A DNA stretch of 46,069 nucleotides from Planctomycetia bacterium (GTDB taxonomy: Bacteria; Planctomycetota; Planctomycetia; Pirellulales; UBA1268), in assembly GCA_046092145.1 (NCBI GenBank), contig JBJTDB010000069.1:1-46069 (forward strand), written 5' to 3'. The notes beneath the pieces are model-generated. The model was given only the letters and a program-made list of their open reading frames with translations, searched no databases and had not been told where the DNA came from. A program made the translations under genes and the position numbers. Shown here piece after piece: positions 8,938 to 15,316 of this stretch. Every line of letters starts with the position of its first letter. The stretch's first letter is position 1.

Positions 8938-9029
8938 GGCCCGCCTGGATGGCGGGCCCAAGGCCGCAGCGACCAGCAGTCGCGAAGGCCCAAGGCCGCG
9001 GTGGCCATGGATGGCACCGCGGACGTGAA
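8938..9029. repeat. Three-hairpin repeat, family A, between convergent purB and fur
   Basis: ggcccgcctGGATGgcgggcc / gcgaccagcagtcgc / ccgcggtggccatGGATGgcaccgcgg. Near-identical to 9764-9856; first hairpin is the reverse complement of the one at ~181-200. Confidence 0.88.
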
Positions 9030-9030
9030 A

Positions 9031-9534
9031 CTAGACGCGGTCTTGATGCCGTGACGTGCTGCGGGTCTTGCAGCAGTCGGCGCACAGCCCTGAGACGATG
9101 AGCCGGTGGCCCTGGGCCCGGAAACGATGGCTTCCGGCGACATGGGCGCAGATTCGGGCGACCTCGTCGCTGGTGAACTCGATGAGTTTCTGGCACGACG
9201 TGCAGTGGAGGTGATCGTGCTGGGGATAGCCGTAGTCGTGCTCGTAGACGCGACGCCCTCCGAGCACCATCTCCTTGAGCAGCCCGGCCGCGACCATTTC
9301 GCTGAGCGTCCGGTAGACGGTGGGGCGGCTCGCCTTGGCTCCTTCGGGCGTCCTTCGCAGCCCGTCGAGCAATTGCTCGGCGTCGAAGTGCTCATGGTGG
9401 CTGGAGATGTGATCGACGATCACCTGCCGCTGTCGGGTGATTCTTTTTCCGCGTGCCTGGAGGAATTCCTCAAACCGCTCCCGCGGCGTCATCGCGGTGG
9501 TCACTTTGCCGAGCGGAAAATCTGCAACAGCCAT
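9031..9534 (-). CDS. fur: Fur-family transcriptional regulator (Fur/Zur/PerR type)
   Basis: GKRITRQR, HFDAEQL, SRPTVYRTL, HDHLHCTSC, GLCADC. GGAGG RBS upstream of ATG 9534; TACAAT -10 at 9556-9561 (minus). Metal specificity cannot be determined here. Confidence 0.9.
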   Translation of the reverse strand: MAVADFPLGKVTTAMTPRERFEEFLQARGKRITRQRQVIVDHISSHHEHFDAEQLLDGLRRTPEGAKASRPTVYRTLSEMVAAGLLKEMVLGGRRVYEHDYGYPQHDHLHCTSCQKLIEFTSDEVARICAHVAGSHRFRAQGHRLIVSGLCADCCKTRSTSRHQDRV

Positions 9535-9605
9535 GCGGATGCGTCCTCCGCACTGATTGTAGCGTCCCGCAGAATCCACCGTTGGGCCGGAGTTTCGACG
9601 AACTC

Positions 9606-9743
9606 GCTCAGGGCTGCCCGTGCCATTCGCCGGACGTTCGCTGCGCCCATCCTGGGCTTCGCTCACTCGGACCTGGCTTCGCTCCGCCATCCATGGCTTC
9701 GCTTGCCAGCTACGCCGGCTCCATGGCACGGGCAGCCCTGAGC
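9606..9743. repeat. MITE-like/structured repeat, family B, with perfect 21-bp terminal inverted repeats
   Basis: gctcagggctgcccgtgccat (9606-9626) / atggcacgggcagccctgagc (9723-9743). Internal hairpins gcccATCCtgggc and gcCATCCatggc. Homologous to 42201-42332. Confidence 0.88.
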
Positions 9744-9763
9744 TACGGTTGAGAAGGTCGCAA

Positions 9764-9880
9764 GCCCGCCCGGATGGCGGGCCCCTAGGCCGCAGCGACC
9801 TGTGGTCGCGAAGGCCTCAAGCCCGCGGTGGCCATGGATGGCACCGCGGGCGTGAACTGGCACCGCGGGCGTGAACTGGC
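9764..9880. repeat. Three-hairpin repeat, family A, with a 19-bp tandem duplication, directly downstream of flgM
   Basis: Same three hairpins as 8938-9029; tggcaccgcgggcgtgaac is duplicated at 9839-9857 and 9858-9876. Confidence 0.88.
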
Positions 9881-10168
9881 TCACCCGCCCAGTCGTTCAA
9901 GCAGTCGGTCGAGGGCCAGATCGAGTTTCTCGGGCGTCTCGTACGAGCCGTCGGCGATCGCCGCGCGGATCGCGTTGACCCGGTCGAAGCGGATGTCGGA
10001 GGTCGCATCGGCGGCCCTGACGGCATCGACCGACAGCGTGACCGCATCACGCACCTCGGACACGCCCTGGTTGGCTGCCGTCTCGGCGGCGGCCTGTGCA
10101 GCCTCCACGCCCTTGACGGCGTTCACGCCTTGCGACCCATGCGTTGAAGTGACACCCCAAATGTTCAT
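9881..10168 (-). CDS. flgM: Anti-sigma-28 factor FlgM
   Basis: 95 aa with DAVTLS and DIRFDRVNAIRAAIADGSYETPEKLDLALDRLL (FlgM C-terminal signature). AAGGAG RBS; lies downstream of fliA. Confidence 0.9.
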   Translation of the reverse strand: MNIWGVTSTHGSQGVNAVKGVEAAQAAAETAANQGVSEVRDAVTLSVDAVRAADATSDIRFDRVNAIRAAIADGSYETPEKLDLALDRLLERLGG

Positions 10169-10346
10169 CGTTGATCTCCTTGCAGACAGTCGTGTGGTTC
10201 CGTCGTCCCCCGTTCGTATCCGGCTCTACGAAGCCGGCCGTCGGAGGGTTCGCTCGAAATCGCCCGAAGTCTTCCTTTCCATTGTTGCCGCGGTCTCGCG
10301 ATCCGGCGACTCCAGTCTCCGAATCATGCGCCGCTCCATCCGATCT

Positions 10347-10409
10347 TCATCGGCAGGGACGGCCAGCAATCTTGATCCGATTTTTTCCGTTCCAGTTTTT
10401 CCTGTTTTC
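10347..10409 (-). promoter_or_regulatory. Putative sigma-28 promoter of flgM (TCAAG-N16-GCCGATGA) with upstream A-tracts
   Basis: -35 TCAAG at 10375-10371, -10 GCCGATGA at 10354-10347, A-tracts at 10381-10409 on the minus strand. Confidence 0.65.
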
Positions 10410-10465
10410 CGGCCCTGCATCCTTCGCAGGCTGCCCAGCCTGCCATCGTTCACGGTCCGGGATCG

Positions 10466-11257
10466 TCACATCGCGAATTCCGGGCGCCGCCGTTCGAGCT
10501 GGTTTTGCAGCCGTTCGACGATCGCGGAATGCATCTGGCTCACGCGGCTCTCGGAGAGGTCGAGCGTGGCGCCGATCTCCTTCATCGTGAGTTCCTCGTA
10601 GTAGTACAGGATGATGATCAGCCGTTCGTTGCGGTTGAGTCCCTTGGTGACCAGCCGCATGAGGTCGGCCTTTTGAATCCGGCGGGTGGGGTCCTCGCCC
10701 TTCTTGTCTTCCAGGATGTCGATTTCGCGCACGTCCTTGGAACTGTCGGTCTCGCACCACTTCTTGTTGAGGCTGACGAGGCTCGCCGCGTTGGCCTCCA
10801 CGAGCAGTTTCTCGAAATCCTCGCGGGAGAGCCCCATGTGCTCGGCCACCTCGGCATCGGCGGGCGCCCGTCCGAGCTTGGCCTCGAGGGTCTTGATCGC
10901 CTCGTTGAGCTTGCTCGCCTTGCTGCGGACGAGCCGTGGCACCCAGTCCATGGTCCGCAGTTCGTCGAGCATGGCGCCGCGGATTCGGGGCACGCAGTAG
11001 GTCTCGAACTTCACGCCTCGGGACATGTCGAAGGCGTCGATGGCGTCCATGAGGCCGAACGTGCCGGCCGAGACAAGGTCGTCGAGTTCGACGCCATCGG
11101 GAAGCCGCGACCAGATCCTCTCGCCGTTGTACTTCACCAACGGCAGGTAGATCTCGATGAGCTTGTTTCGCAGCGATTCGTTCGACTGGTCCTTCTTGAA
11201 CCGTTTCCAGAGATCGTGGATCTCCTCGGGCGTCAGCTGGCTTGCTTGATAGGCCAC
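10466..11257 (-). CDS. fliA: RNA polymerase sigma-28 factor, FliA/WhiG family
   Basis: DDLVSAGTFGLMDAIDAFD, KFETYCVPRIRGAMLDELRTMDWVPRLVR, LYYYEELTMKEIGATLDLSESRVSQMH. GTG start with AAGGAG RBS. Confidence 0.96.
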   Translation of the reverse strand: MAYQASQLTPEEIHDLWKRFKKDQSNESLRNKLIEIYLPLVKYNGERIWSRLPDGVELDDLVSAGTFGLMDAIDAFDMSRGVKFETYCVPRIRGAMLDELRTMDWVPRLVRSKASKLNEAIKTLEAKLGRAPADAEVAEHMGLSREDFEKLLVEANAASLVSLNKKWCETDSSKDVREIDILEDKKGEDPTRRIQKADLMRLVTKGLNRNERLIIILYYYEELTMKEIGATLDLSESRVSQMHSAIVERLQNQLERRRPEFAM

Positions 11258-11291
11258 GTCTTCACTCCTTGAGTAGCGTCCGATCCGTATG

Positions 11292-11320
11292 ACATCGTCG
11301 GATCGGCATCCTGTCCTTGA
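11292..11320 (-). promoter_or_regulatory. Putative sigma-28 (autoregulatory) promoter of fliA (TCAAG-N16-GACGATGT)
   Basis: TCAAG at 11320-11316, 16-nt spacer, GACGATGT at 11299-11292. Same geometry as the flgM site. Confidence 0.55.
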
Positions 11321-11389
11321 ATTGGTTTTCAGCCGCCCCTGCGGCTTGCCTGGCTTGCCCGGCCTGCGCCGGGCTTTCTCCCGATGCGG

Positions 11390-13498
11390 CTATGCCGCAC
11401 GCGACACCTCCCCGTCTCCGAGCGTGGTGAAGACCTCGACCTTCGGTTCGTCGGCGATCTCCTCCTCCGCGAAGATGCGGAGTTCTGGTAGCTGGCGGGT
11501 CAGCATGTCGCGAATCCGGCTCCGCGTGGCACCCGGCACGACCAGCACCGGTGCCGCACCACGCTCGGTGCCGGGCCGCAGCGCGCGGCGGAGGCCGGCC
11601 ACCAGATGAGGCGACGGGCTCGGGGCATCTCCCTGCGCGAGCCGGGAGACCGTCGCCGATTCCAGGCGGATGACCGGGAGGCGACCGCTTCGGTCGCGGG
11701 CCCGCCGGCAGATCGTTCGGGCGACATGGCGGCGGACGATTTCGGCCAGGGCGTCGGCATCGCGGCCCTCCGTGGCATGGTCGGCCATGATCTCGAGGAG
11801 TTCGGCGAGCGGTCGGATCGGCACGCCCTCACGGAGCAGCGATTGGAGCGTGCGGTGGATCCGGGCCACGGTGAGCACCCCAGGAACGATCGAATCGATT
11901 ACGGCCGGTTGACTGGCACGGAGCGATTCGACGAGCCGAGCCACGGCATCGCGGGTGAGAAGCCGGTCGGCCTGCATCCGGACAGCCGTTTCGATGCCCC
12001 GGGCGACCATCGTCGCGTCGTCGAGGACCTCGGCGCCATGCCGCCGCGCCAGGGCGGCCTTCGCCTCGCCGACCCATGCGCCACGGCGGCGGGTCAGCGG
12101 ATCGATGGCTTCGGCGCCATCGACCCGGGCGTCGTCATCGGCTGCCGCGATGACGAACCAGTGTCCTGCGGGAATGTCGCCTTCCTGCACGACATCGCCG
12201 GCGATCGTCACGCGGTAAGCGCGGTCGGGCATCGCCAGATCGTCACGAAACTGGACGGCCGGCACGACCAGCCCGAGGTCGGCGGCGACAGCCGAACGCA
12301 GTCCGGCCACGGTCGTCACGAGCGGGCCCTCGTCGCCCCCGCTGCCGGACGAGACCAGCCGGAGGAGGCTGCGGCCGACGTGCACGACGATCCGTTCGTC
12401 GGCAAGCACGGTTTCGGCGAGCGATGCGGTAGCGGGGGTGATGGCCGTTGCGGCCCGATCGGGCGACGTGCGGGCCGCTGGCCCGGTTCGTTTTCGGTCG
12501 GCACGTGCACGGCGGGAGACGGTCCAGGCGGCGGCCATCGTGACGACGGCCATCGCGGCCAGCGGCAGCGGCGGGAGGTCGGTGAAGCAGAGGAGCCCGA
12601 GAAAGATGGCGGTGATCAGGAGCACGTGCGGCCGCGACGTGAACTGCCGTCCGAACTCCTGCGAGAGGTCCACGGCCTGGCTCGACCGTGAAATGAGCAG
12701 GCCCGTGGCCACCGAGACGAAGAGCGAGGGCACGGCGCTGGAGAGCCCGTCGCCGATCGTCAGCCGCGAGAAGACATCGACCGCCTTCTGGACGGGCATG
12801 CCATGCTGGGCCACGCCGATCGCGAGCCCTCCGACGATGTTCACGACCGTGATGATCACGCCGGCCACGGCCTCGCCGCGGACGAACCGGCTCGCACCGT
12901 CCATGCTTGCGAAGAAATCGGCCTGCCGTTGCAGATCGAGCCGTGCCAGACGGGCCTGTTCGCGGGTGATCGTTCCGGCCTGCACTTCCGTGTCGATCGC
13001 CATCTGTCGCCCGGGCAGTCCATCGAGGGCAAACCGGGCGGCGACTTCGCTGGTCCGTGTCGAGCCTGCGGTGATGACGACGAACTGGATGACCGCGATG
13101 ATCGCGAAGATCACGGCACCGACGACGAGATTGTTGGCGGCGACGAATTCGCTGAATGCCTGCACGACGCCGCCGGCGGCGTGGGTGCCGTCGATGGCGG
13201 CGCGGGTGAGGATGAGCCGCGTCGTGGCGATATTCAGCACGAGGCGGACGAGCGTCGCTCCCAGAAGGAACGTCGGGAAGATGCTCATCTCCAGCGGGGT
13301 CCGAGCTGCGAGCGCCCCGAGGAGGGCCAGGACGGAGATCGTCAGATTGGCCGCCAGCATGAGATCGACGATCGGCGATGGCACCGGCGCCAAGACGACG
13401 AGCACCGCCAGCAGGATCGCCGCCGGGATGACGAAGTCGAGGACATGGGCCGACATCCCACGAGGAACGGCGATGGTCGTGCCGGCTGGCTGGGCCAT
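11390..13498 (-). CDS. flhA: FlhA/FHIPEP-family type III export-gate protein, divergent
   Basis: FPTFLL.ATLVRLVLNIATTRLIL, FVVIT.G..R.SEVAARFALDGLPGRQMAID, DFFASMDGASRFVRGEAVAG, LTIGDGL, multiple TM segments, cytoplasmic FRDD and LLREGVPIR. Confidence 0.9.
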   Translation of the reverse strand: MAQPAGTTIAVPRGMSAHVLDFVIPAAILLAVLVVLAPVPSPIVDLMLAANLTISVLALLGALAARTPLEMSIFPTFLLGATLVRLVLNIATTRLILTRAAIDGTHAAGGVVQAFSEFVAANNLVVGAVIFAIIAVIQFVVITAGSTRTSEVAARFALDGLPGRQMAIDTEVQAGTITREQARLARLDLQRQADFFASMDGASRFVRGEAVAGVIITVVNIVGGLAIGVAQHGMPVQKAVDVFSRLTIGDGLSSAVPSLFVSVATGLLISRSSQAVDLSQEFGRQFTSRPHVLLITAIFLGLLCFTDLPPLPLAAMAVVTMAAAWTVSRRARADRKRTGPAARTSPDRAATAITPATASLAETVLADERIVVHVGRSLLRLVSSGSGGDEGPLVTTVAGLRSAVAADLGLVVPAVQFRDDLAMPDRAYRVTIAGDVVQEGDIPAGHWFVIAAADDDARVDGAEAIDPLTRRRGAWVGEAKAALARRHGAEVLDDATMVARGIETAVRMQADRLLTRDAVARLVESLRASQPAVIDSIVPGVLTVARIHRTLQSLLREGVPIRPLAELLEIMADHATEGRDADALAEIVRRHVARTICRRARDRSGRLPVIRLESATVSRLAQGDAPSPSPHLVAGLRRALRPGTERGAAPVLVVPGATRSRIRDMLTRQLPELRIFAEEEIADEPKVEVFTTLGDGEVSRAA

Positions 13499-13624
13499 GA
13501 AGGGCGAGTCACTGGGGTGAAAAACGTCGCTGACGGGCGGCGGGACGGTAGCGGAGCCCCGCAGGCCCGTCCAGACCGCTCCGGGCCGCGAGAGCGGCTA
13601 GAATGAAGGTTTTGGAACCGTGCC

Positions 13625-14068
13625 ATGCACCATGATCGCCTCGGCCTCGCCTTCGACTATCCCGACAACTGGTCGGTCGATACCGATGCCTCCGACATCG
13701 CCGCTCCTGCCGTCACGGTGTCGTCGCCCGATGGGGCCTTTTGGTCGCTCAGCGCCCATGCCGCCGGCACCGACCCCGACAGCCTCTCCCGAGCCGTGCT
13801 CGACGAGATGCGAAGGGAATACCGCGACCTCGACAGCGAGTCGGTGGTTGACGAGGTCGGTGGACACCCCATCGCCGGATTCGACCTCAACTTCTACTGC
13901 CTCGATCTCACGAACACCGCCCACGTGCGGGCGATGGCCACGCCTGCGGCGACCTATGTCGTCTTTTGCCAGGCGGAGGACCGGGAGTGGGATCGCGTGG
14001 CGCCGGTCTTCGAGGCCATGACGGCCAGTTTCATTCGATCGCTTCCCCGCGACGACGACGACGAATGA
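13625..14068 (+). CDS. Conserved hypothetical protein (PsbP/DcrB-like fold suspected)
   Basis: LAFDYPDNWSV...GFDLNFYCLDLTNTA...FCQAEDREW...FEAMTASF; normal codon usage; TAGAAT -10 at 13599-13604. Confidence 0.75.
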   Translation: MHHDRLGLAFDYPDNWSVDTDASDIAAPAVTVSSPDGAFWSLSAHAAGTDPDSLSRAVLDEMRREYRDLDSESVVDEVGGHPIAGFDLNFYCLDLTNTAHVRAMATPAATYVVFCQAEDREWDRVAPVFEAMTASFIRSLPRDDDDE

Positions 14069-14224
14069 AAAAGACTCGTGGATCAGGGGAGCCCGTGCTT
14101 GGTCGCCGGATGTTCCCGGCCTTCCCGGCCGCCGTGGTTTACGGTTCGCGGGAGCGCGCCTAAGATTCCGTTGACTGCATGCTCGTGTCAGATGGCCTGA
14201 GCTGCCCCCCCGCAGGAAGCCGCC

Positions 14225-15316
14225 GTGTCCCCCCTCCTCCTTCTCGCCGCCGCCGACAGGGCCACATCTTCCGCCGCGCCACTCGGTGGGAGTCCGATCC
14301 AGATGGTGCACTGGCTCGCCTTTGGCGCGCTCGTGACGGTGCTCCTGGTGCTCGATCTGACGGTGTTCCACAAGCAGTCGCACGAGCCGAGCCTTCGCGA
14401 AAGTGCGTTTTGGACATGCTTCTGGTCGGCCCTGGCCCTCTCGTTCAATGCGCTCCTTTGGTGGTGGCTCGGCGGCAAGGCGGCCCTCGAGTTCCTCACG
14501 GGCTATCTCGTCGAGTGGTCGTTGTCGATGGACAACGTCTTCGTGTTCGCCGTCGTCTTCGGCTACTTCGGCGTGCCGCTGAAGTACCAGTATCGGGTCC
14601 TCTTCTGGGGCATCCTCGGTGCGGTGATCATGCGGCTGACGTTCGTCCTGCTCGGGGCCGAACTGGTCGAGCGGTTCAAGTGGGTCATGTGGATCTTCGG
14701 CGGCGTTCTGGTCTACACGGGCGTCGAGCTCGCCTTCAGCGACGATGATCACGAGCCCGGTGACAACGCGCTCATCCGCTTCTTCCGCCGCATTATTCCG
14801 GTCTCTTCGCGTTCGGAGGGCGACAGGTTCTTCATCCGTGAGAACGGCCGGCTCATGGCGACGCCGCTCTTTCTGGTGCTGCTCGTCGTCGAGAGCACCG
14901 ACGTGCTCTTCGCCGTCGACAGCGTGCCGGCGATCCTCGGCGTGGTCGAGAAGGGAACGCCCTACATGCGGTTCGTCGCCTTCACGTCGAATGTCTTCGC
15001 GATCCTCGGCCTGCGGGCCCTCTACTTCCTGCTCGCCGGCGTGATGGATCTCTTCCGGTTCCTCAACTACGGCCTCTCCGCGGTGCTCGTCTTCGTCGGC
15101 TTCAAGATGATCGCCGAGGCGGCCCGTCACAACGAATGGCTGGCGGGCCTCGGCGGCTGGGATGCCCATGCGAAGGGCCATCTCGTCCATCCGGCCGTTT
15201 CGCTGCTGTTGATCGTGTGCCTGATCGGCACCAGCGTGGTCGCGTCGCTCATGTTTCCCGAGCGCCGCGATGGCGGCCAGATCGCCGGCCATGGCGACAC
15301 GTCATCCGCGTCGTAA
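14225..15316 (+). CDS. TerC/Alx-family metal homeostasis membrane protein
   Basis: FLTGYLVEWSLSMDNVFVF, QYRVLFWGILGA, VESTDVLFAVDSVPA, FTSNVFAILGLRALYF. Confidence 0.95.
   Translation: MSPLLLLAAADRATSSAAPLGGSPIQMVHWLAFGALVTVLLVLDLTVFHKQSHEPSLRESAFWTCFWSALALSFNALLWWWLGGKAALEFLTGYLVEWSLSMDNVFVFAVVFGYFGVPLKYQYRVLFWGILGAVIMRLTFVLLGAELVERFKWVMWIFGGVLVYTGVELAFSDDDHEPGDNALIRFFRRIIPVSSRSEGDRFFIRENGRLMATPLFLVLLVVESTDVLFAVDSVPAILGVVEKGTPYMRFVAFTSNVFAILGLRALYFLLAGVMDLFRFLNYGLSAVLVFVGFKMIAEAARHNEWLAGLGGWDAHAKGHLVHPAVSLLLIVCLIGTSVVASLMFPERRDGGQIAGHGDTSSAS

Follow-up and report, generated by a model that had tools for sequence, protein, structure and literature searches.

A Conserved flhA-fliA-flgM Cassette as Part of a Probable Flagellar Relic in a Non-Flagellated Family of Pirellulales

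The genes for the flagellar export-gate protein FlhA, the sigma factor sigma-28 (FliA), and FlgM, the matching anti-sigma factor, form a cassette on a 46,069-nucleotide stretch of DNA from a Planctomycetia bacterium of the order Pirellulales (contig JBJTDB010000069.1, here called the window). The window is the entire contig C69 of the genome G000, an assembly of 3.27 Mb in 396 contigs (96.84% complete, 0.94% contaminated); "the family" denotes the Pirellulales family of this genome, and G035 is a closed flagellated genome from the same order. The cassette is very probably not a motility locus, and we are equally confident that it is maintained by selection. The family has kept an inner-membrane gate (FlhA, together with FliF, FliO/P, FliQ, FliR, and the membrane domain of FlhB, which are encoded on contig C216) and the sigma-28/FlgM pair, and the rod, hook, filament, C-ring, ATPase, and stator are gone. 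Our tentative reading, held at slightly under an even chance, is that the cassette is one half of a flagellar relic kept under purifying selection by a whole non-flagellated family, and that it may act as a coupled, rewired switch between gate and sigma factor.

Flagellar Genes of the Window Genome

The three genes lie on the same (minus) strand, where the original prediction had placed them, and both their open reading frames and profile matches largely agree with the proposed identities. flgM (9881-10168) encodes a 95-aa protein that matches PF04316 at 30.1 bits (cut-off 25) and the NCBIfam equivalog TIGR03824 at 38.4, slightly below the cut-off of 40.75. fliA (10466-11257, GTG start) encodes 263 aa, reaches 268.1 bits with the FliA/WhiG model TIGR02479 (cut-off 189.6), and matches all of sigma-70 regions 2, 3, and 4 (PF04542, PF04539, and PF04545). 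flhA (11390-13498) encodes a divergent, family-specific form of the gate protein with 702 aa. Its FHIPEP match (PF00771, 615.7 bits) extends over profile positions 2-655 of 657 and therefore includes the membrane domain, the linker, and the C-terminal cytoplasmic domain, and the protein can be aligned to the solved Salmonella FlhA across residues 25-694. It scored higher with the FlhA model TIGR01398 (599.7, cut-off 772.1) than with the SctV model TIGR01399 (445.2), the latter also being below its cut-off. The spacers measure 132 bp between flhA and fliA and 297 bp between fliA and flgM. No flhF or flhG was found between flhA and fliA in the window; in G035, an SRP54-type GTPase gene (FlhF-like) is located behind flhA.

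The placement of the organism in Pirellulales agrees with the names attached to close FlhA homologues in their sources. On C69 itself, no further flagellar family was detected among those searched, in agreement with the earlier claim that the 46-kb window holds no other flagellar gene: matches to FliF, FliP, and FlhB were confined to C216, and the remaining families were unmatched or below cut-off. The further claim that exactly the checkpoint components remain has to be given up, since fliF, fliO/P, fliQ, fliR, and a truncated flhB are also kept on this other contig. C216 (8.8 kb) carries mdh, a hydrolase gene, fliF, a FliO-like/FliP frame, fliQ, fliR, and flhB in this order, with Pfam scores of 210 bits for FliP, 59 for FliQ, 88 for FliR, and 97 for FlhB (profile 2-237 of 335), and with a FliO-like stretch at 21.3 bits, just below the cut-off of 22. 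In the window genome this stretch and FliP share a single 513-aa frame (C216, 4626-6167, plus strand); the FliP frame of low-G+C relatives has only 294-299 aa, and the FliO-FliP fusion may thus be a high-G+C effect. The FliF protein matches PF01514 at 64 bits, and its C-terminal M-ring domain (PF08345) gave no match, as compared with 30.6 bits in FliF of G035. In an AlphaFold2 model of FliF (mean pLDDT 66), residues 48-69 and 482-506 form membrane helices and there are three alpha/beta modules, the last one interrupted by a low-confidence Pro/Ala-rich stretch (305-354), and the top Foldseek matches of the model are FliF proteins. Two small frames 3' of flhB without Pfam match were dismissed as genes, as they are the antisense of a 383-aa opposite-strand gene according to the low-G+C genome G023.

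Profile searches of the whole window genome assembly gave no match for Flagellin_N, Flg_bbr_C, Flg_bb_rod, FliG_C, FliMN_C, or MotB_plug. The FliI/YscN model (TIGR01026) matched only four sub-threshold ATPases (best 216.7, cut-off 379.5), and the two best of these adjoin each other and resemble ATP synthase subunits. When all open reading frames of three flagellar loci from G035 were searched against the window genome, only FliF, FlhA, FliA, and housekeeping genes were recovered. Injectisome marks were likewise not found, with nothing over the TIGR01026 cut-off and the FlhA model scoring above the SctV model (secretin and needle were not searched for).

Distribution Across the Family and the Order

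The occurrence of these genes was compared in 24 other genomes of the family (12 genera) and 16 genomes from other families of the order. FlhA was found in 23 of the 24 family genomes (the sole miss is 50% complete) and in all 16 others, and FliP and FlhB were each detected in 21/24 and 16/16. On the other hand, none of the 24 family genomes had flagellin (12/16 in other families), a rod/hook domain (11/16), FliG (15/16), or FliI above cut-off (14/16). The family set includes assemblies of 5 and 20 contigs (92-94% complete). The complete flagellar gene set that the original prediction had itself named as contrary evidence was not found in the window genome or its 24 family relatives, which supports the proposed uncoupling of the cassette from a flagellum.

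A broader sample of 121 genomes, spread evenly over the order and each at least 85% complete, showed FlhA in 119 and rod/hook genes in 79. Genomes that have lost the axial genes and kept FlhA are thus common across the order. Rod-less genomes of other families (G029, G031, and G040) still carry FliG and FliI, and in G040 the genes fliF, fliG, fliI, fliO/P/Q/R, truncated flhB, and flhA form one cluster. Reduction has gone furthest in the family of the window genome and in part of family f4.

Two further observations were made on individual flagellar proteins in the order. Two FliG_C matches were present in 10 of 11 rod/hook-bearing Pirellulales, the one adjacent to fliF/fliI scoring 44-74 bits and the one at a separate place 140-155 bits. 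In addition, G047, G049, G064, G116, G126, and G136 have an extra FHIPEP match that is limited to the C-terminal half (profile about 310-656, 233-257 bits) and lies in frames of about 500 aa, a stand-alone paralogue similar to the FlhA C-domain.

Truncation of FlhB

The gate of the family is also distinguished by a shortened FlhB. In all 22 family genomes with a match (the window genome included), FlhB ends at or before profile position 249 of 335. The proteins have 236-264 aa and end 10-25 residues past a Q-A-D-P-x-V motif, before the N-P-T-x cleavage site and the C-terminal domain of about 100 residues, both of which are kept in G035. This C-terminal domain is reported to perform the switch from early to late export substrates, FlgM being a late substrate (PMC7911332).

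In the 121-genome sample, FlhB length closely followed the presence of axial genes. Among the 79 rod/hook-bearing genomes, FlhB was full-length in 78, truncated in 0, and unmatched in 1; among the 42 in which no rod/hook gene was found, it was full-length in 9, truncated in 31, and unmatched in 2. Truncated forms therefore occurred in 31/40 rod-less genomes with a match versus 0/78 rod-bearing genomes, one of the 31 (G132) being uncertain, as its fragments are located at the ends of contigs. Eight of the nine full-length proteins from rod-less genomes scored 287-349 bits and that of G086 scored 378, compared with 362-411 bits in rod-bearing genomes. The truncated forms are distributed over nine families, and because several of these also include flagellated members, the truncation probably occurred more than once.

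Selection on the Three Genes

Pairwise dN/dS ratios (Nei-Gojobori, up to 14 pairs per gene) were 0.10-0.35 for FlhA, 0.012-0.088 for FliA, and 0.056-0.40 for FlgM, with 0.012-0.22 for Fur and 0.06-0.16 for PurB as a comparison. Neutral decay of flhA, the other outcome that the original prediction had regarded as contrary, is contradicted by these ratios and by synteny throughout the family. FliA sequences share 85-98% identity in the family and 78-80% with that of flagellated G035, comparable to malate dehydrogenase (78%); the identity to G035 is only 40% for FlhA and 23% for FliF. Full-length FHIPEP matches score 557-626 bits in the family versus 805-856 bits in other families.

Constraint is distributed unevenly along FlhA. 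The membrane part has a dN/dS of 0.04-0.17 and a mean column conservation of 0.82 in the family versus 0.83 in flagellated relatives, and the C-terminal domain has a dN/dS of 0.14-0.37 and a conservation of 0.63 versus 0.82. With Salmonella residue numbers read off the alignment to the solved FlhA, the equivalents of R147, R154, and D158 in the cytoplasmic loop were found to be invariant in 22/22 family and 6/6 flagellated sequences. The chaperone-docking dimple, which we take to comprise D456, F459, and T490, has changed in the family: S or T stands at the variable equivalent of F459, and R at that of T490 in 77% of the family, while F and T are present in 6/6 flagellated relatives. For what the loop residues and the dimple do, we follow PMC7911332.

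A split FHIPEP match (profile 2 to about 405 and about 453-655) was observed in G022, G027, G054, G085, G097, and G128, i.e., in one genus of the family and several f4 genomes, with FlhA of G022 having 640 aa. This pattern points to a segment deleted or replaced inside the protein, where the C-terminal domain of FlhA begins. FlgM is conserved in the family in its C-terminal half and in its first 13 residues. The N-terminus of FlgM is the site of the export signal in Salmonella.

Synteny and Origin of the Two Gene Blocks

Of 22 family loci, 20 show the order flhA-fliA-flgM and the remaining two run out at a contig end, and fur follows flgM in all 17 loci that extend that far. Every family locus reaching far enough has the full arrangement, namely (TerC)-neighbour, the divergent flhA-fliA-flgM-fur, and convergent purB. 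Gene order is unaltered even though the G+C content of the locus varies between 47 and 72% across the family; within the genus assigned to the window genome, the loci of G002 and G003 have 47-48% and those of the window and G021 have 65-69%, again with the same order. The second block (mdh-hydrolase-fliF-fliO/P-fliQ-fliR-flhB) did not vary among the 15 retrieved loci of the family, some of which break off at a contig or locus end.

In G035, flhB, fliI, fliG, fliF, the hydrolase gene, mdh, flhA, the FlhF-like GTPase gene, and fliA are located within about 35 kb, with purB after fliA. We infer that the two blocks of the family are the remnant of such a region after deletion of the cytoplasmic and axial genes. 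With respect to the isolated cassette of the original prediction, the missing flhF/flhG between flhA and fliA was verified, but the linkage of flhA and fliA is ancestral and not newly built.

In one genus (G023 and G013), the flanks of the two relic blocks are swapped, with purB behind flhB and the gene of about 383 aa behind fur, as expected for an inversion with its ends just downstream of flhB and fur.

Predicted Promoters and Other Regulatory Elements

A motif consisting of T-A-A-A-G, 17 nt, and C-G-A-T was found in the flagellin upstream regions of 8 of 11 flagellated relatives and is read as the order's version of the sigma-28 promoter. A predicted flgM promoter of this type (T-C-A-A-G, 18 nt, C-G-A-T-G; 10347-10375, minus strand) lies in a family-conserved block about 172 nt before the flgM start in the window. 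It is preceded by an A-rich stretch to about 10389, the same architecture as in the flagellin promoters, and a site of the form T-x-A-A-G, 17-18 nt, C-G-A-T-(G/A)-A is present in 20 of 21 fliA-flgM spacers of the family. A candidate sigma-28-like site, located in conserved alignment columns 35 nt 5' of the fliA start (11293-11320, minus strand), points to candidate autoregulation of fliA; the motif is at the best matrix position in 14 of 22 family spacers, and the site in the window genome scores only 14.6.

A promoter matrix built solely from the family's flgM sites was then used to scan the whole window genome. The highest score (27.9) fell on the flgM site and the next (24.6) on a non-coding site of contig C230, the latter 115 nt upstream of an IHF/HU-family nucleoid protein gene (PF00216, 90 bits). 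Of the corresponding upstream regions in 24 family genomes, 22 have a site with a score of at least 18, situated 108-187 nt before the start of this IHF-like gene, and the remaining two reach 12.6 and 15.0. In 14 Pirellulales of other families, including rod-less G027, G029, and G031, a score of 18 was never reached (0/14, maximum 13.4), and only 0.17% of 3000 random 300-nt windows from the window genome reach it. Related genomes are not independent of each other, but the persistence of this non-coding motif across such a range of G+C content is hard to explain without a function. The idea of a repurposed signalling module receives indirect support from the predicted, family-specific sigma-28-type promoter at the IHF-like gene.

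The scan gave 13 matches of at least 20 versus 0-3 in five mononucleotide shuffles; this excess is no evidence of a regulon, because most of the matches lie in codon-periodic sequence. Further candidates from the same scan are located at C190:5328-5356, C320:14453-14481, and C356:8739-8766. Two earlier motif versions were set aside: the enterobacterial sigma-28 consensus had 0 strict matches in the genome, and a first order-specific motif with a spacing of 17 had 2 matches versus 0-4 in shuffles, the later matrix from the flgM sites working better.

A different type of element was found upstream of flhA (T-x-G-A-C, 17 nt, T-A-x-x-G-T; 13544-13580, minus strand). It has sigma-70-like geometry and occurs as a single copy in the genome; 21 of 23 family loci have it, as against 0 of 6 flhA upstream regions from flagellated relatives. 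A pseudoknot was also considered for this element: 89.6% of cells were paired versus 87.8% in shuffles (10 of 500 as high), with 2 double-sided changes and a 1-nt loop. A putative promoter is the preferred reading, the pseudoknot being weakly supported.

The putative flgM leader (10169-10340, minus strand) was delimited by alignments and comprises about 172 nt from the predicted start, with an AAGGAG ribosome site. Its length is about 170-320 nt across the family, and it contains conserved blocks that include one ending in C-A-A-C-A-A-T-A-G and a G-A-A-C-C ... C-G-T-A pair. No structured RNA was recognized in the leader, with no Rfam match in 9000-14300 and a consensus fold of -0.51 kcal/mol with 4 pairs. 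The flhA-fliA spacer (11258-11389, minus strand) has a G+C-rich inverted repeat right after the flhA stop, the position of which is kept in close relatives; it looks like a terminator that could separate flhA and fliA transcription.

RNA Contigs and Complex Prediction

Contigs from three metatranscriptome runs of one study, 92-99% like the window, cover flgM and its leader (9883-10326) and parts of fliA and flhA, which is compatible with a start near 10340; starts cannot be read from contigs, and carry-over of DNA is possible. Their depth is highest over 10175-10326, up to 416. The habitat label of these runs is based on small word shares within that one study. No listed RNA contig spans 10327-10529 or most of flhA, an observation from which, given the nature of contigs, absence of transcripts does not follow.

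Structure prediction of the FlgM-FliA complex with author-made alignments gave a score of 0.38, as compared with 0.15 for the best of three controls. The runs share at least 70% of contacts, and the partner pLDDT is at least 53. Of 80 solved complexes, 58 attained the mark applied, and so did 2 of 110 mismatched pairs; with scores of 0.60 or less, only 7 of the 80 solved complexes did so, together with both passing mismatches. FlgM and FliA are a textbook pair and a similar complex has been solved, so that the pass may stem from likeness to it.

Neighbouring Genes

The 3' neighbour of flgM is a gene for a Fur-family regulator (9031-9423, minus strand; PF01475, 78 bits), whose membership in the system is only putative. 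The protein has 130 aa by homology, and the open frame extends to 9729. On the other side of the cassette, a divergent gene (13625-14068, plus strand) encodes a 147-aa protein that has no Pfam match and is probably outside the system. Its AlphaFold2 model (pLDDT 92.3) has a PsbP/Mog1/DcrB-like fold, with Foldseek matches to PsbP, DcrB, and the EagT6/SciW chaperones, and the protein is predicted to be cytoplasmic. A role as a dedicated chaperone of the system was rejected, as the gene is present in 36 of 41 order genomes, including flagellated ones, and lies far from flhA in G035. Beyond it is a TerC/Alx gene (14225-15316, plus strand; TIGR03718, 373.5 bits). NCBI calls the TIGR03718 subfamily "riboswitch-controlled", and no Rfam family, yybP-ykoY included, was found in 9000-14300.

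Interpretation and Alternative Explanations

In the mechanism that we tentatively propose, FliA would activate its own gene and flgM, and FlgM would sequester FliA until it is removed. The likeliest outlet for FlgM would be the residual proton-driven gate, leading to the periplasm, which would need neither the FlhB C-terminal domain (the dock for early substrates) nor the filament chaperones. Gate activity or membrane state would then set FliA activity, and the freed FliA would drive non-flagellar targets, at least the gene for the IHF-like nucleoid protein, and no longer flagellar genes. The parts of this scheme are not equally secure. That the sigma-28/FlgM circuit is active and rewired appears probable, and departure of FlgM through the gate is possible but on balance doubtful.

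Coupling of the two halves is favoured by the nature of what has been deleted and retained. The missing parts, namely the early-substrate dock of FlhB, the filament-chaperone dimple of FlhA, and the ATPase, are those on which the export of rod, hook, and filament proteins depends. What has been retained comprises the channel, the proton path of FlhA, FliA, and the conserved FlgM N-terminus, and flgM is fixed behind flhA-fliA. FliA is the export chaperone of FlgM itself in Salmonella. Moreover, export has been reported to persist at a low level without the ATPase (PMC7911332).

Several observations weigh against this coupled switch. In model organisms, FlgM export is described as requiring a finished hook-basal body and a cleaved FlhB C-terminal domain, with FliJ helping gate opening (PMC7911332), and the hook-basal body, the cleaved domain, and FliJ are all missing in the family. 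In Legionella oakridgensis, a working FliA/FlgM pair has been reported without a gate, FlgM apparently being degraded (PMC5655016); because this pair works without a gate, a FliA/FlgM pair does not need one. The adjacency of flhA and fliA is ancestral according to the comparison with G035 and is therefore no evidence of coupling, and in rod-less genomes of other families the gate and flgM are unlinked. The gate genes have no sigma-28-type site (the best score before fliF is 7.4) and flhA has the sigma-70-like element, so that gate and sigma circuit are not obviously co-regulated. Beyond flgM and the IHF-like gene, the genome-wide scan did not reveal a clear regulon. The complex prediction gives no more than weak support for binding between FlgM and FliA. 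In FlhA, the C-terminal domain is relaxed, with only 34 of 156 positions that are invariant in flagellated relatives being kept, and the proton-path region carries two replacements, K203 to R and D208 to E, fixed in 22/22 family sequences. In G006, the closest relative (FlhA 95% identical), the FlhA match is broken around residue 602 into two pieces that overlap and are read in different frames, a frame break that is either an assembly error or real decay. Finally, all family genomes are metagenome-type assemblies, and the absences rest on searches.

The alternative to which we give the most serious, if minority, consideration is that two relics persist independently: FliA and FlgM would form a regulatory pair from which FlgM is removed by proteolysis or partner switching, and the gate would do another job, which could be periplasmic export of another protein or a non-secretory role, for instance ion conduction or polar/membrane organisation. 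Precedents exist for both halves, as L. oakridgensis has FliA and FlgM only, with a sigma-28-dependent flgM and degradation of FlgM (PMC5655016), and Lysobacter enzymogenes reuses leftover export genes for twitching control and antifungal protein secretion (PMC7688988, PMC7277350). The lack of sigma-28-type sites at the gate genes, the relaxed docking domain of FlhA, and the presence of FlhA in 119/121 genomes of the order, flagellated or not, also fit this explanation, as do the rod-less genomes G040 and G049, in which flgM is on another contig than flhA or megabases away. However, in the family and in G027 (family f4) flgM stands directly behind flhA-fliA in fixed order, the FlgM N-terminus is conserved across the family, and no alternative substrate or partner of the gate was found, the sole conserved neighbour tested (13625-14068) being order-wide.

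Slow decay, in which the genes are non-functional leftovers and their conservation reflects nothing but recent loss of the flagellum, is improbable. It would account for FlhA scores about 230 bits below those of other families, the relaxed C-terminal domain, the frame break in G006, the internal FlhA gap in G022 and G027, and the recurrent flagellum loss in the order, but it is difficult to reconcile with dN/dS values well under 1 in all three genes and in each domain of FlhA, intact frames in fixed order over 12 genera with 47-72% G+C, a membrane part of FlhA as conserved as in flagellated relatives, conserved promoters, and the recurrence of the same truncated FlhB form in nine families. Still less credible, to the point of being very improbable, is a hidden flagellum or appendage built from axial proteins diverged beyond recognition, or encoded by genes that were left unassembled or unbinned. 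Profile searches can miss very divergent proteins, the family genomes are fragmented or of metagenome type (the window genome being in 396 contigs), and two frames 3' of flhB gave no Pfam match, although they are read as antisense of the opposite-strand gene. Against this, five independent families are lacking from 25/25 family genomes, the 5- and 20-contig assemblies included, and the same profiles match strongly in relatives from the order. fliO/P directly follows fliF in the family, while in the 20-kb fliF locus of G035 FliI is about 2 kb away and no fliO/P/Q/R or flhB match is present. Moreover, the FlhB switch domain, which is required for rod and hook export, is deleted.

Relation to Known Systems

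Partial flagellar loci in non-flagellated bacteria are, in general, already known. Abby and Rocha found incomplete type III loci, almost all of them flagellar in origin, in 61 replicons (PMC3459982), and a recent survey reported partial sets in 4% of genomes, with FlhA, FlhB, and FliP/Q/R strongly tied to flagellin and lost together with it (PMC12199754). Pirellulales depart from this rule of joint flagellin and gate loss, and the main text of the survey has no mention of Planctomycetes (PMC12199754). In the literature covered, which did not extend to supplements and subscription journals, no description was found of this pattern in Planctomycetes or of a natural FlhB without its C-terminal domain, and no paper was found that combines a planctomycete term and flhA.

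The family shares its three actors (gate, FlgM, and FliA) and their promoter logic with the Salmonella checkpoint (PMC7911332), but lacks a hook-basal body to sense, a FliK/FlhB C-terminal domain switch, an ATPase, and class 3 flagellar genes that could be turned on. It resembles L. oakridgensis and other clade III Legionella, which are reported to have lost the flagellum and kept sigma-28 and FlgM (PMC5655016); in L. oakridgensis, the FlgM/FliA pair is described as functional, the flgM promoter as sigma-28-dependent, and FliA as controlling non-flagellar genes (PMC5655016). Unlike L. oakridgensis, which has neither basal body nor gate, the family co-retains the membrane gate, with flgM fixed behind flhA-fliA. 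The non-flagellated predator Lysobacter enzymogenes OH11 is similar in retaining FlhA, FlhB, and FliP/Q/R without flagellin, and its leftover export genes are reported to be expressed and put to new uses (PMC7688988, PMC7277350, PMC9927559). Lysobacter, however, keeps FliI, which is needed for secretion, and hook-related proteins such as FlgD, whereas no FliI, FliG, rod, or hook gene was found in the family, where FlhB is also without its C-terminal domain. Buchnera aphidicola, a reduced endosymbiont with filament-less basal bodies, keeps basal-body, rod, and hook parts; the family has inner-membrane parts only, in free-living freshwater/environmental planctomycetes. Within the wider PVC group, non-flagellated Chlamydia has stray FlhA, FliI, and FliF paralogues and sigma-28, and Chlamydiae also have a full injectisome and keep FliI. 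No FlgM is known from them. In the family, in contrast, no injectisome-type ATPase exceeded the cut-off, and the FlhA model scored above the SctV model.

Four features are new relative to these cases: a minimal composition in which ATPase, C-ring, and axial parts are all missing; the repeated loss of the C-terminal domain of FlhB as a non-flagellar marker; FlhA retention throughout the order; and the family-specific sigma-28-type promoter on the IHF-like gene.

Implications

For genome annotation, FlhA, FliP, or FliA is no predictor of motility in Pirellulales, and FlhB length is. If the gate still moves protein, the family would offer a natural test of a bare gate working on proton-motive force alone and of the dispensability of the FlhB C-terminal domain, and the reuse of a secretion-coupled sigma switch would become testable. 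In a wider reading, which we consider rather unlikely, Pirellulales would have repeatedly turned the flagellar core into an inner-membrane export or signalling device without ATPase, rod, and C-ring, and FlgM throughput would, in the family, gate an IHF-rewired sigma-28 as a membrane-state or life-cycle switch. If such an export device does exist, it would provide a living example of the stripped-down gate that has been postulated as the flagellar ancestor and as the first step toward the injectisome.

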